A stretch of DNA of 64,000 bases, taken from assembly GCF_017348835.2 (NCBI RefSeq), contig NZ_CP071375.1; one strand, 5' to 3'. The stretch's first letter is position 1, and each line of letters opens with the position of its first letter. This DNA comes from Escherichia coli. Its GTDB lineage: Bacteria; Pseudomonadota; Gammaproteobacteria; Enterobacterales; Enterobacteriaceae. Below are positions 7,824 through 63,232 of the stretch, one piece after another. Position numbers and translations under genes: made by a program. The notes under the pieces are model-generated. The model was not told where the DNA came from, did no database searches, and saw only the letters and a list, made by a program, of their open reading frames with translations.

Positions 7824-7852
7824 AAAAAAGAAGCCTCCGTTATGGAGGCTTC
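7824..7852 (-). terminator. Hairpin terminator after yjcB (probably also serving ssb)
   Basis: gaagcctcc-gttat-ggaggcttc hairpin with an A6 run on the + strand (T6 on the - strand). Confidence 0.55.
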
Positions 7853-7858
7853 TACGTA

Positions 7859-10566: not shown

Positions 10567-11031
10567 ATGGAAAAGAAATTACCCCGCATTAAAGCGCTGC
10601 TAACCCCCGGCGAAGTGGCGAAACGCAGCGGTGTGGCGGTATCGGCGCTGCATTTCTATGAAAGCAAAGGGTTGATTACCAGTATCCGTAATAGCGGCAA
10701 TCAGCGACGATATAAACGTGATGTGTTGCGATATGTCGCAATTATCAAAATTGCTCAGCGTATTGGCATTCCTCTCGCGACCATTGGTGAAGCGTTTGGC
10801 GTGTTGCCCGAAGGGCATACGTTAAGTGCGAAAGAGTGGAAACAGCTTTCGTCCCAATGGCGAGAAGAGTTGGATCGGCGCATTCATACCTTAGTGGCGC
10901 TGCGTGACGAACTGGACGGATGTATTGGTTGTGGCTGCCTTTCGCGCAGTGATTGCCCGTTGCGTAACCCGGGCGACCGCTTAGGAGAAGAAGGTACCGG
11001 CGCACGCTTGCTGGAAGATGAACAAAACTAA
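10567..11031 (+). CDS. soxR: MerR-family redox-sensing regulator with [2Fe-2S] cluster
   Basis: 154-aa ORF; MerR helix-turn-helix; cysteine cluster [12 protein letters not shown]. Confidence 0.97.
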
Positions 11032-11170
11032 AGCGCCACAAGGGCGCTTTAGTTTGTTTTCCGGTCTTTGTCTTTCTCTCTATCCCGCTGGTACACAGGA
11101 GGGTTTCCCCCGACGTCAACACACCTCATTCGAGCACGTGGTGGAGGTTCCGGTTGGTGTTGATGCTTTA
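11030..11170 (-). ncRNA. ryjA: Possible small RNA ryjA in the soxR-ghxP spacer
   Basis: Positional recall only; hairpin aaagcgccacaagggcgcttt lies at 11032-11056; no sequence-level verification possible. Confidence 0.2.
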
Positions 11171-37049: not shown

Positions 37050-37257
37050 ATTAAATACATCCTGTCTGCTGCGAACAATATCTGTAGTGAATATCAATAT
37101 CCATTGAAGGCGTCAGTATGGCTATTTTCTTGATGAATAAAAATAGCTTTATTCAGCCACCGCATTCATAACTTATATATTTTATTTATTAATTGGCTGT
37201 ATATATTTTTAAAATAAATGCTTTTGGGGGCTTCAGCGCCCCCAAAAGCGAGTGACA

Positions 37258-58255: not shown

Positions 58256-58272
58256 CTTAAGGTTCACTTAAT
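58256..58272 (+). promoter_or_regulatory. Candidate PmrA (BasR) box upstream of pmrR
   Basis: CTTAAG-gttca-CTTAAT direct hexamer repeat with 5-bp spacer, 45 bp upstream of the pmrR ATG. Confidence 0.65.
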
Positions 58273-58316: not shown

Positions 58317-58406
58317 ATGAAAAACCGTGTTTATGAAAGTTTAACTACCGTGTTCAGCGTGCTGGTGGTCAGCAGCTTTCTTTATATCTGGTTTGCCACG
58401 TACTGA
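58317..58406 (+). CDS. pmrR: 29-aa membrane peptide PmrR
   Basis: ATG...TGA encoding MKNRVYESLTTVFSVLVVSSFLYIWFATY; overlaps the 3' end of basS on the opposite strand by 25 bp. Confidence 0.8.
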   Translation: MKNRVYESLTTVFSVLVVSSFLYIWFATY

Positions 58407-59473
58407 TCTTTCTTCAGCCGTATCCAGGCGCGCGTGCCAGAAGTCTCTTGCCGGTTTTGCAGGAAAAACTGCCCGTGATGCAACTGTGTAATGCGGCTGA
58501 CAATACTTAACCCCAGACCAATCCCGCCATAACGGCTGTCCATTCGTACAAACGCTTTACTCAACTCCCCGCATTTACTCTCATCAATACCCGGTCCTTC
58601 ATCTTCAACGGCCATGACCGCTCCGTCATCTTCTTGCAGCTTAATCATAATGTTGCTGCCTTGCGGGCTGTAACGATGGGCGTTTTCTACCAGATTTCGC
58701 AATAACATCCGCAGCAGGGTTGCATCACCCTGAACGGTGATGTCGGCGGCGCTCTCTGGCAATAGCAGGGTTTGCTGGCGCTGGTCGAGCATGGTACTGA
58801 GTTCGTCATACGAGGGGAGAATGACATCTTCCAGCAGTTTTACATGTTGATAATTACCGGAAGAAAATGACTGTCCGGCACGCGCCAGTTGCAGCAGCTG
58901 GGAGACGCTCTCCATCATCTGATCAAGCCGTGCCACTAACGGTGCTACATCAATGTGATGCGTTTTCGCCAGCAGTTCCAGATGCAAACGTACCCCCGCC
59001 AGTGGCGTTCGCAGTTCGTGCGCGACGTCAGCGGTAAATAACCTTTCGTTATCCAGCGTGCTGGTCAGGCGACTGACTAGATCGTTCAACGCCGAAACCA
59101 CCGCTTCGATTTCGAGGGTGGCGCTGTGAATGGCAATGGGCGTTAAGTTGTCGGCGGTGCGCGCTTCCAGCTCTTTTTGCAGCTCCGCCAGCGGGCGGGT
59201 GATGCGGCGTACCGCCTGATAGCAGATAAATAGCGTCAGGCTGACCATAAAGACGCCGGGGACAATCAGGCTGGCGACCGCCTCGCGGATCTCACGCATG
59301 ATGTGGCGATCGTTGTTGCGATTGTCGCGTAGCGCCTGCTCAAACAGCTGAATCTGCTCGGTACTTTCATGCCATAGCCAGAAGACGCTGATCAGCTCAA
59401 ACACCAACAAAATGGCCCCGATGGTCAATATCAGCCGTTGGCGCAGCGATATTGGTCGGCGCAGAAAACGCAT
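58382..59473 (-). CDS. basS: Two-component sensor histidine kinase BasS/PmrB
   Basis: 363 aa from M(R)FLRRPISLRQRL; H-box ADVAHELRTP; the ORF-track start at 59482 is the alternative. Confidence 0.93.
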   Translation of the reverse strand: MRFLRRPISLRQRLILTIGAILLVFELISVFWLWHESTEQIQLFEQALRDNRNNDRHIMREIREAVASLIVPGVFMVSLTLFICYQAVRRITRPLAELQKELEARTADNLTPIAIHSATLEIEAVVSALNDLVSRLTSTLDNERLFTADVAHELRTPLAGVRLHLELLAKTHHIDVAPLVARLDQMMESVSQLLQLARAGQSFSSGNYQHVKLLEDVILPSYDELSTMLDQRQQTLLLPESAADITVQGDATLLRMLLRNLVENAHRYSPQGSNIMIKLQEDDGAVMAVEDEGPGIDESKCGELSKAFVRMDSRYGGIGLGLSIVSRITQLHHGQFFLQNRQETSGTRAWIRLKKDQYVANQI

Positions 59474-59482
59474 CAGATTCAA

Positions 59483-60151
59483 TTAGTTTTCCTCATTCGC
59501 GACCAGCATATAGCCAAAGCCGCGCACGGTGCGGATACGGGCTTTGCCCACTTTGTCGCGCAGATTGTGGATATGCACTTCCAGGGTGTTGGTCGAGGGT
59601 TCATTGTCCCAGTTATAGATGTCGTTGTAGAGAATTTCCCGATGTACCGGACTGCCTGCTTTGAGCATTAACCGTGACAGCAGAGCATATTCTTTGGGCG
59701 TCAGAATCAACTCTTCACCGCCCATCCATACCTGACGGCGACCCATATTCAGCGTCAGATTGCCAACAATCAGCTCACTTTCGCCCTGATTATTATGGCG
59801 TCGTAGCAGGGCGCGGATACGGGCGTGTAACTCTTCCAGCGCAAAAGGCTTCACCAGATAGTCATCGGCACCGACATCCAGCCCGGCGATTTTGTCGGTC
59901 AGCGTATCGCGAGCGGTGAGGATCAGTACCGGCAGGGTGTATTTTTTCTGCCGGATACGGGCGAGAAAATGCAGTCCATCTTCGTCGGGTAACCCTAAAT
60001 CCAGTACTACCAGGCTGTAATGACCGGCCTCAAGGCTTTGTTCCGCCATCCGCGCGGTTGTCACGCCATCGCACGCGTAGCCTTCGGTTTGCGCCGCCAG
60101 AATCAGTCCCTGCAATAACAGCGTATCGTCTTCAACAATCAGAATTTTCAT
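59483..60151 (-). CDS. basR: Two-component response regulator BasR/PmrA (OmpR family)
   Basis: 222-aa [22 protein letters not shown]... Confidence 0.96.
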
Positions 60152-61791
60152 TCACTCACTCTCCTGCAAGTATGCAGAATATCATCCGCAGCCTGGTAAT
60201 ACTTCGTCTCAACGCCAGTTAATCCCAATAGCGTGGAGAATAAATTGTCTTGTGAATAGTGTTGCGTTTGCGCCTGTTTTTGCAGGCAGTTCTGGTCAAC
60301 CTGATACCGTTTTTGATAATCCTCCGACAGCCACAGCAGCATCGGCACCTGTTTTTGGCTATCCGGGGCGATGGCATAAGGCAGACCGTGCAGATAGATG
60401 CCATTTTCACCTAACGATTCACCGTGGTCAGAAAGATAAACCAGGCTGGTGGTAAATTTATCCTGATGTTCTTTCAGCAGATTAATCGCTTTATCAACAA
60501 TATAGTCGACGTAAACCAGCGTGTTGTCGTAAGTGTTCACCAGTTGCTCTTTGCTACAGGTCTGGATCTCATTGGTGTCGCAGGTTGGGGTAAATTTCCT
60601 GAACTGCGGCGGATAGCGGTTGTAATAGGTCGGACCGTGGCTGCCGATGGTGTGTAAGACAATCACGCCATCACCCTGCAGGTTATTGATGTACTCTTCC
60701 AGCCCGTGGAACAGCACTTCGTCATAGCATTCGCCGTTGATGCACTGACCAGGCAGATTCAGCGCGGTGACGTTCTGGTGAGGCACGCGGTCGCAGGCAC
60801 CTTTACAGCCGCCATCGTTGTCATTCCACAGCACGTTGATGCCCGCTCGCTGAATGATATCCAGCACGCCTTCCTGGTGCTGTGCCAGCTCTTCTTTGTA
60901 GTGCTCACGCGGCATATCCGAGAACATGCACGGTACTGAAACTGCCGTTGCTGTGCCGCAAGATGCGGTATTAGGGAAATAGACCACGTTATCTTTCGCC
61001 AGCCGCGGGTTAGTTTCACGCGGGTAGCCGTTGAGGGAGAAGTTCTCCGCCCGCGAGGTTTCGCCGACAATCAGGATGGTCAAATTTTTACGTTTTTCGT
61101 TCTGCATTAACGGGTTGCGGTGCGCGTCTTCACCAATTCGCACCAGCGGCAGATTTGCCAGTCGCTGATGGGAGTACCATGACCAGCTGGCAACAATGCT
61201 GTTAGAGGGGCTTAAGGATTTCACCAGCTCTTTGTTATTGCGGAACAACGAGGCGTAGTCTTTATAAAACAGTGCGGCGACCAGCAAAATCAGCAGTACA
61301 GAAACCAGAATATTGGCTCCACGGAAAAGAACACTGCGCAGACGCGAGGTGGCAGGTTTGATTTTTATCCAGCAGGCAATCAGCGCAGCAAGCACGCCGC
61401 TGAATCCCAGCGTTAATAACATTTGCGGTGTCATCAGCGCATAGCTTTCTGCCGGAGTGGTATCAATAATATTGGCAATCATCGAGCGGTCGATGACGAT
61501 GCCGTAAGTCATTATGAAATATTGTGCAGCCGCGCCGACCAGAATAAACAGGCAGGCCAGCGGTCGATTAAGCCATAAGAAAGAGCTTAGTGTCAGGACA
61601 ATATTAATCACGCTGAAGGCGACGACCGGCATCGACAAGAAAACCAGTACGTTATGCAGCGAGTCTAGCGGCAGCGCCTGCAACACCTGTTTAAAAAAGG
61701 CAATATTCAGGCAGATAGAGATATAAAAAGCGGCCAACAATAGCCAGGCGAGTAAATTCAAAGAGGGTCTTTTTAGTAGGCGCTTCAACAT
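60148..61791 (-). CDS. eptA: Lipid A phosphoethanolamine transferase
   Basis: 547 aa from [21 protein letters not shown]-terminal TM domain plus sulfatase-like periplasmic domain. Confidence 0.93.
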
Positions 61792-61837
61792 CACGGTGTT
61801 TCCATCGAACAAAGTGCGCATATGCTCGCAAAGCAAA

Positions 61838-61854
61838 ATTAAGCCAACCTTAAG
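61838..61854 (-). promoter_or_regulatory. PmrA (BasR) box of the eptA-basRS promoter
   Basis: Minus-strand CTTAAG-gttgg-CTTAAT about 50 bp upstream of the eptA start; part of a longer palindrome. Confidence 0.7.
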
Positions 61855-61894
61855 TTCTTAAGGTTGGCTTTTATCTTTGCTGGATTAAGGGGAA

Positions 61895-63232
61895 TTAATC
61901 TTTGCTTATTGGTGCATCTAAGGGATACGGGTTTTTATGCAGCCGGTTGTAATTCAGCGCATACATGGCGGTGATGACCATCAGGGTGACAAATGACCAC
62001 ATAACCTCTTTCGCCCCGGACCCCACCACGGCCCAGATGCAGTAGAGGAAGGCAATGGTAGTAACTGCCAGATATGCCGGGCGTGCTTTACCAAAGTGAC
62101 CGTGTCCGAGCAGCAGTAACGCCGCACAGGTGTAAAGATATGGCACCAGTGTAAAGATGACCGAGACGGAAGAAACCAGACCGAATTCTTTGGTCGCGTT
62201 TGGTGAAATGCTGCTGAGCTGGAAGATGGTCATCAAAATACCGACGATAATCAGCCCCGCCACTGGCGTACCCGCTTTATTTACACGGGCAAAAATCGGT
62301 GGGAACAGTCCGTCATCGGCAGCGGCTTTCGCCGTTTGACCCGCCAGCAATGTCCAGCCGCCCAGTGAACCTAAGCAACCCGCAGCTGCGCAGAAGGAAA
62401 CAATGGCCCCGGCGGTGTCACCCAACGCCATCCGTGCGGCATCACCGAATGGCGAGGCAGAAACGCGCAGTGCGGCATTAGGGATCATCCCCATAATCGC
62501 GGTGGTGGAGAGCACATAGCAAACGGCGGCAATCAATACCCCACCAATGGTGGCTATAGGGACGTTGCGTTTCGGGTTTTTCACCACACCTGCGGCAACG
62601 GAGGCACTTTCCACACCGATGAACGACCACAGCGTAACGTTAAGGGTACTTTGAATCGCACCGAAGGTGCCCAGGCCGCTGACGTTCCATGCCGCCATAT
62701 AGGTTTCACCACGAAACCAGAACCAGCCAAATACGGCAATCCCGACGATGGGGATCAGCGCCAGCACGGTGGCAACGGCCTGCACACGGGTGATCATTTT
62801 CGGACCGACAATGTTCAGCAGGACGAAGATCCACAGCACCACGACGCAGGTGATGGTTAATACCAATGGATCTTTCAGAATCGGGAAGAAGTAACTTAAA
62901 TATCCTACGCCAATGACCACCATGGCGATATTGCCGATCCAGCAGGCCAGCCAGTAGAGGACGTTGGTTTGATAACCGAGAAACGGGCCAAAGCAGCGGC
63001 GGGCGTAAGTGTAAGAACCACCAGGACTTGGGTCGAGGAACGACATTTTGGCGTATACCATCGAGAGCCCCAGCGCACCGATAATCGTCACCAACCATCC
63101 ATAAATGGCAATCCCGCCAGTGGAGGCCAGGTTTGCAGGTAACAGAAAAACACCTGACCCCATAATATTCCCCGACACCATCAGGGTGACGGGGATTAAG
63201 CCCACTTTGTGAGCATCAGCATCCGAAGACAT
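61895..63232 (-). CDS. adiC: Arginine:agmatine antiporter (APC family)
   Basis: 445-aa polytopic [39 protein letters not shown]... Confidence 0.96.

Follow-up and report, generated by a model that had tools for sequence, protein, structure and literature searches.

The window, a stretch of 64,000 nucleotides of Escherichia coli DNA, carries adiY, adiC, eptA, basR, and basS/pmrB on its minus strand and the small gene pmrR and proP on its plus strand. These identities are those of the RefSeq annotation of an E. coli O157:H7 chromosome, which is 100% identical to the window over a 301-nt query taken around the palindrome described below; this query occurs in 5412 of the 5426 complete E. coli genomes. 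According to the open reading frame list and the RefSeq annotation, the coding sequence of adiC, the gene for the arginine:agmatine antiporter, spans positions 61895 to 63232 of the minus strand and ends in a TAA codon at 61895–61897, while that of eptA (pmrC) spans 60148 to 61791 of the same strand, opens with an ATG at 61791, and is followed by basR and then basS. The two genes are separated by 103 bp (61792–61894). In K-12, where coordinates equal those of the window plus 4273799, the RefSeq annotation contains no regulatory feature inside this adiC–eptA intergenic region.

The first element of the intergenic region is a box for the response regulator PmrA/BasR, CTTAAG-GTTGG-CTTAAT (CTTAAGGTTGGCTTAAT), at 61838..61854 on the minus strand, with half-site 1 at 61854–61849, the spacer at 61848–61844, and half-site 2 at 61843–61838. 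It is a direct repeat of two YTTAAK (XTTAAY) hexamers with a 5-bp gap, following the half-site definition of PMC3973317, and its last base lies 46 nt before the eptA ATG, close to the 50 bp given in an earlier note on this DNA, which had also correctly named the motif. The pattern YTTAAK-N5-YTTAAK occurs twice in the 64 kb, against 0.09 occurrences expected, and both matches precede PmrA-regulated genes. The second box, CTTAAGGTTCACTTAAT (58256..58272, plus strand), lies upstream of pmrR, another PmrA-controlled gene, and serves as an internal positive control for the motif. The pmrR gene itself (approximately 58318–58407, plus strand, 29 codons) lies opposite the 3′ end of basS, which it overlaps, and the 17-mer of its box is a Salmonella-type variant that recurs unchanged as the eptA box in Salmonella subsp. 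diarizonae (L007). The gene yjdB/pmrC is among the biologically validated PmrA targets (PMC1525208), the pmra-box overlaps the −35 element in pmrCAB (PMC10570014), and PmrA-P binding and PmrA-dependent transcription have been reported for Salmonella pmrC, as cited in PMC1525208 and PMC10570014. Given the canonical motif, its conserved position, and these reports (PMC1525208, PMC3973317, PMC10570014), it is near-certain that 61854–61838 is the already known PmrA/BasR box of the eptA–basRS promoter. It resembles the boxes of the pmrCAB/eptA–basRS, pbgP/arnB, and ugd promoters in its hexamers, its 5-bp gap, its predicted overlap with the −35 region, and its placement before a lipid A modification operon, and the box itself is no different from them; what is undescribed in the sources searched is the exact mirror-image arm that lies upstream of it.

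Downstream of the box, the hexamer CATATG (61819..61824, minus strand) is the putative −10 element of the PmrA-dependent eptA promoter. Most Enterobacteriaceae loci have a CAT-type hexamer 13 nt past the box, replaced by a GAT type in Salmonella and the Citrobacter freundii group, and reading this hexamer as the −10 element places the box in the −35 region, as PMC10570014 states for pmrCAB. The eptA start site is thus predicted near 61810–61815, some 25 nt downstream of the box; a literature search found no E. coli eptA start site. Because this predicted start lies downstream of the hairpin that is discussed next, the eptA mRNA should be free of it. The mechanical open reading frame call opens eptA at a TTG that precedes the annotated ATG (61791) by 15 codons; this extension (61792–61836) crosses the putative −10 element and the region of the predicted start site, and it almost certainly goes untranslated.

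The second element is a perfect palindrome of 30 bp (61841–61870), rather than the 26 bp given in the earlier note, whose placement of it just after the adiC stop codon holds. An inverted-repeat search delimits two 14-nt arms that are 100% complementary around a 2-nt center: the 5′ arm, AAGCCAACCTTAAG (61857..61870, minus strand; inverted repeat I1), contains an extra CTTAAG hexamer (61862–61857, minus strand) that is inverted relative to the PmrA box, and the 3′ arm, CTTAAGGTTGGCTT (61841..61854, minus strand; inverted-repeat, fold, and motif searches), coincides with PmrA half-site 1 and the spacer and runs three bases into half-site 2. No other perfect palindrome in the 64 kb is as long, and none of 100 first-order Markov randomizations exceeded arms of 12 nt. 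As minus-strand RNA, the palindrome gives a 13-bp stem capped by a GAAC loop (ΔG −18.8 kcal/mol, z = −6.9), and no shuffled sequence folded equally well. Five of the 13 pairs are G–C, three of them near the base of the stem, just within two closing A–U pairs. An outer imperfect inverted repeat, GCAAAG...CTTTGC (61828..61880; inverted repeats I3 and I4), forms the outer helix of the minimum-free-energy fold and widens the symmetry to approximately 53 bp. An Rfam search returned nothing above threshold, the best scores being 19–23 bits against gathering thresholds of 50–80. Collectively, these data establish that the overlap of box and hairpin is real, statistically unusual, and, as detailed below, constrained in Escherichia.

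The flanks of the palindrome differ in character. Between the adiC stop codon and the hairpin lie 24 nt (61871..61894, minus strand), about half of whose columns vary among six Escherichia lineages, and this spacer is the fast-evolving part of the adiC–eptA intergenic region. There is also a 12-nt direct repeat: the last codons of adiC together with the stop codon, AGCAAAGATTAA (61895–61906, minus strand), reappear 25 nt downstream as AGCAAAGATAAA (61870–61881), which adjoins the palindrome directly. A further small hairpin, GAUUAAUUCCCCUUAAUC (61883–61900), straddles the adiC stop codon. On the other side of the stem lies a T-rich tail, AATTTTGCTTTGC (61828..61840, minus strand), which would be the U-tract of adiC transcripts and, at the same time, the spacer between the box and the −10 element of the eptA promoter.

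Does the hairpin terminate adiC? The earlier note had proposed so, and parts of that proposal stand. The nascent RNA would form a stable stem-loop with a GC-rich base, the stem is followed by an 8-nt tail made of A and U only, the 5′ arm is constrained in Escherichia, and the palindrome has often decayed where a REP-like hairpin is present. The spacing is also suitable: PMC4824070 describes terminators located a few bp from a gene as being repressed by the ribosome, which makes the 24-nt distance from stop codon to hairpin compatible with function. Other parts fare less well. The T-rich tract that the earlier note had described on the minus strand is present, but the sequence that directly follows the GGC of the stem, UUAAUUUUGCUUUG, is broken by AA within its eight A/U residues (nT = 2.78), so that the U-tract is interrupted (UUAAUUUU). 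A d'Aubenton-Carafa-type score, for which d > 0 marks a terminator, reached −9.5 at best and −35.6 with the 30-nt stem, the threshold being only approximate here since the discriminant was computed with modern energy parameters. Comparator palindromes in the window score above zero (11025, +12.8; 7829 on the minus strand, +23.8; 37220 on the minus strand, +1.3); these sequences (11025–11055, 7829–7853, and 37220–37249) are long perfect palindromes with the classic architecture of A-tract, GC stem, and T-tract. The hairpin thus resembles E. coli intrinsic terminators in having a stem-loop with a GC-rich base, an 8-nt A/U stretch, and a position near the stop codon of a co-directional gene, and differs from them in that its stem is AU-rich around the loop, its U-tract is broken by AA, and its score is below zero. 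In the E. coli Term-seq supplementary tables examined, a search by gene name, b-number, and K-12 coordinates gave no entry for adiC or eptA and no mapped 3′ end of adiC; adiC may be too weakly expressed under the growth conditions used. We regard the case for the hairpin serving as the adiC terminator as evenly balanced, and by classical criteria such a terminator would be weak.

A consensus scan calls the palindrome terminator-like on both strands, and this raises the possibility that its main task is to stop antisense transcription on the plus strand, coming from eptA, before it reaches adiC. Bidirectional terminators typically consist of a perfect palindrome flanked by A-rich sequence on the 5′ side and U-rich sequence on the 3′ side, and the palindrome shares both this outer A-tract/U-tract symmetry and the call on both strands. 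Moreover, the plus-strand tail, UUUUAUCUUUG, is the more U-rich of the two (nT 2.86 versus 1.32, both with the 30-nt hairpin). However, the plus-strand score is still negative (−7.6), the plus-strand tail is not conserved among Escherichia species, both flanking genes lie on the minus strand, so that the palindrome is not placed between convergent genes, and a plus-strand promoter was not detected nearby. We consider this role very unlikely. A PmrA-driven antisense promoter on the plus strand was a separate candidate and was dropped: in Escherichia, the second of the mirrored half-sites is degenerate and has no plausible −10 element after it.

Covariation between the two arms did not reach significance: 87.4% of cells are paired, compared with 87.1% in shuffled data, and 204 of 500 shuffles reach the observed value. 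A double-sided change occurs in one of the 13 pairs, from C–G to A–U with pairing kept, in a single lineage (L010, L012, and L053). However, the 3′ arm is frozen by the PmrA box, and the covariation test therefore has little power. Sense and antisense pairing do equally well, the covariation statistics contain no RNA-specific signal, and the idea that G–U mismatches favor the sense strand was rejected, as the antisense strand has about as many G–U pairs.

These results are in keeping with an explanation in which the palindrome is a neutral by-product of the box. Quasi-palindrome correction by intrastrand template switching during replication is an established mechanism, and the self-complementary CTTAAG could seed a quasi-palindrome from which the sequence of the box would be copied onto an unselected arm that has no function. 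This would account for arms that mirror the box variant of their own lineage (GCCAAC/GTTGGC in Escherichia, GACAAC/GTTGTC in L025, and CATTAAG/CTTAATG in L010), for long arms beside unrelated upstream genes, and for covariation statistics that lack an RNA-specific signal. What argues against it is that uncorrected mismatches persist in many Citrobacter and Salmonella loci, that the palindrome is strongest exactly where an alternative hairpin is absent, and that the near-absolute invariance of the arm in approximately 5400 E. coli genomes, beside a variable spacer, suggests purifying selection. Specifically, the 13-nt 5′ arm has no variable column among six Escherichia lineages, while roughly half of the 27 columns that separate the arm from the adiC stop codon are variable or contain indels, and the conserved block in Escherichia starts exactly at the outer edge of the 5′ arm. 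A 40-nt core, with a median of one occurrence per E. coli genome, reaches an identity of at least 99% in 5382 of the 5401 E. coli genomes, and the surrounding 301 bp are 90–99% identical in approximately 1300 genomes. An invariant arm beside a variable spacer indicates that the non-box arm is either constrained or continually homogenized. The neutral explanation is, in our estimation, unlikely.

Comparison of orthologous loci separates what is old in this intergenic region from what is recent. A scan with EptA, in which each species was represented by a single genome, yielded 60 loci, and 57 of these were analyzed. Two of the sequences, L060 and L061, are contigs of 230–250 nt that are labelled Comamonadaceae and Methylobacterium yet match E. 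coli eptA with 100% identity, which points to contamination; L025 carries the label Chryseobacterium, probably in error, since its EptA shares 72% identity with that of E. coli and the CofD-like gene upstream of it corresponds to that of the Klebsiella-type loci. Where the eptA match begins at residue 1, a box of the form CTTAAGGTTG(G/T)CTTAA(T/C/A) lies approximately 61–65 nt before the ATG; the distance of 77–78 nt in the Klebsiella/Raoultella group arises because the eptA matches there begin at residue 6. adiC is upstream of eptA only in Escherichia, Salmonella, and most Citrobacter. In Klebsiella, Raoultella, Kluyvera, and Enterobacter-like genomes a co-directional gene of the CofD family takes its place, in Intestinirhabdus a DUF2238 gene, and in Citrobacter koseri a class I fumarase gene. 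The box is thus conserved in orthologous promoters behind four different upstream genes (adiC, CofD-family, DUF2238, and fumarase), and it is the ancestral, primary element of the intergenic module. Nor are long perfect arms specific to adiC: arms of 11–12 bp are found in Intestinirhabdus (L022), with DUF2238 upstream, and in L025, with the CofD-like gene upstream, where the arm GACAAC mirrors the local box variant GTTGTC.

The arm itself appears to fall into two parts. An extra TTAA located 4 nt before the box (61858–61861; TTAA-N4-TTAAGG) is invariant in all Enterobacteriaceae loci examined (L001–L058) and is missing or shifted in Pantoea and Tatumella. It is kept in Klebsiella, Kluyvera, and Raoultella despite a hairpin of only −0 to −10 kcal/mol, and this conservation where there is no stable hairpin implies that at least the inner arm is a feature of the promoter at the level of DNA. 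The tail that follows the stem is T-rich in the Escherichia/Salmonella/Citrobacter group and A-rich in the Klebsiella/Kluyvera/Raoultella group. Klebsiella-type loci have a separate GC-rich hairpin directly against the AT-rich flank of the promoter, so that a terminator adjoining the eptA promoter appears to be common, by different solutions. Our reading is therefore that the inner arm belongs to the promoter and that the GC-rich outer arm, GCCAAC, is probably a lineage-specific addition that gives a stable RNA hairpin.

The conservation of the inner arm also lends itself to a purely DNA-level explanation, in which the upstream arm would be an extra inverted half-site, a mirror-image PmrA box, or a site for another protein or for the α subunit of RNA polymerase, tuning eptA activation or autoregulation, while adiC transcription ends by Rho or reads through and the RNA hairpin is incidental. 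The invariance of TTAA-N4-TTAAGG in all Enterobacteriaceae loci examined, even without hairpin potential, speaks for this explanation. In addition, an AT-rich upstream flank appears to be general in PmrA promoters: the pbgP promoter used in the PmrA–polymerase structure (a K. pneumoniae scaffold) also has an upstream AT-rich segment (PMC10570014), and the arnB box of E. coli K-12, CTTAAGGTTAAGTTAAT (L063, 312–328), follows the AT-rich TCTAATATTAGTTT, which resembles the upstream flank of eptA and is not identical to it. Furthermore, complete or near-complete PmrA boxes are present on the antisense strand in Citrobacter amalonaticus (L006 and L009, both at 2414–2468) and Citrobacter gillenii (L018, 2412–2466), where the longer mirror arm results in two back-to-back boxes 2 bp apart; that of L006 is CTTAATGTTGGCTTAAT. 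However, the extra hexamer begins at a distance of 8 bp from half-site 1, which does not fit the 11-bp phasing of PmrA, and in Escherichia the antisense second half-site is degenerate and variable (CTTTTA, CTTATG, CTATTA, CTCTTA, and CTTATC). The E. coli arnB and pmrR promoters are AT-rich at the corresponding position but differ in sequence, the exact TTAA being absent from both, and Klebsiella-type promoters have nothing equivalent to the GC-rich outer arm, GCCAAC. We regard this explanation as unlikely, if somewhat less so than the neutral one; taken jointly, the two carry about a third of the total weight.

The adiC-linked loci provide a natural comparison between intergenic regions with and without a second hairpin. 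In nine such loci, from Escherichia and C. amalonaticus, any other intergenic hairpin is absent or has a folding energy of −5 kcal/mol or weaker, and the palindrome folds with −12.7 to −19.4 kcal/mol. In the 14 others, from Salmonella (L007 and L008) and Citrobacter (L010, L012–L015, L017–L019, L052–L054, and L056), and including the C. freundii group, the intergenic region holds a GC-rich, REP-like hairpin of −17 to −29 kcal/mol, and the palindrome ranges from −0.8 kcal/mol, in Salmonella, to −16.7 kcal/mol, a comparison that rests on perhaps four to six independent lineages. The REP-like hairpins lie between the adiC stop codon and the palindrome (for example, GCCCGATG...CATCGGGCCTAC), are GC-rich and lack a U-tract, and are accompanied by an adiC–eptA spacer of 131–147 bp, versus approximately 100 bp otherwise. 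Decay of the palindrome beside a REP-like hairpin fits the appearance that would be expected of relaxed constraint after the gain of an alternative 3′ hairpin. REP/BIME units are intergenic palindromes whose RNA hairpins stabilize upstream mRNA and whose DNA binds IHF or gyrase. The palindrome studied here is like them in following a gene and in being readable at two levels, as a hairpin in RNA and as a binding site for a protein in DNA, but it does not belong among them: it occurs at a median of one copy per genome, it has no REP consensus and is unlike the REP-like hairpins of L007 or L013, and the protein that binds it is a specific activator.

Taken together, these comparisons lead us to favor, at about even confidence, a dual-use module in which the PmrA box and a terminator or 3′-end hairpin of adiC occupy the same bases, the box having come first and the mirror arm second. 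At the level of DNA, PmrA-P would bind the two hexamers head to tail, overlapping the −35 region, and would recruit σ70 RNA polymerase, with eptA transcription expected to start approximately 25 nt downstream of the box. In Escherichia, the DNA just upstream would then have become an exact mirror image of half-site 1 and the spacer. Because this arm lies upstream of the box, a polymerase arriving from adiC transcribes a 13-bp hairpin and then UUAAUUUUG. We propose, with moderate confidence, that the hairpin acts as a modest intrinsic terminator, as a stem that protects the 3′ end of the adiC mRNA, or as both, and it may also shield the PmrA-dependent promoter against read-through. The same bases would thus serve one function in RNA and the other in DNA, and no coupling between the two would be required.

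The earlier note had gone further and suggested that termination of adiC is coupled to activation of eptA, a claim that the present analysis does not support, as the sharing of bases does not imply regulatory coupling. A regulatory overlap could take several forms: PmrA-P, with polymerase bound at the box, would occupy the DNA that encodes the 3′ arm and might act as a roadblock, or the AT-centered 30-bp palindrome might extrude as a cruciform, either of which would alter the frequency of adiC termination; conversely, read-through from adiC, strongly induced under extreme acid, might feed the autoregulatory loop of eptA–basRS. We consider it very unlikely that the overlap is regulatory in any of these ways. 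If this were true, however, then the remodeling of lipid A and the arginine-dependent resistance to acid would be physically linked.

A literature search did not find a description of the overlap between the PmrA box and a terminator-like hairpin at adiC–eptA, and the locus adds one more example to a known class of compact terminator–promoter overlaps, one that leaves the current understanding of the PmrA regulon and of intrinsic termination unchanged. In practice, these bases will be called both by motif scanners and by terminator predictors. The locus makes an evolutionary route visible, in which a mirror arm would have been built onto a fixed box and then relaxed after the insertion of a REP-like hairpin. 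If the hairpin does terminate or stabilize the adiC mRNA, then a single stretch of DNA would hold two codes, one read as DNA, as an activator site and −35 region, and the other read as RNA, as a stem and U-tract. Mutations in the adiC–eptA spacer, or its engineering, could affect both the expression of acid resistance and the PmrA-dependent polymyxin resistance genes.
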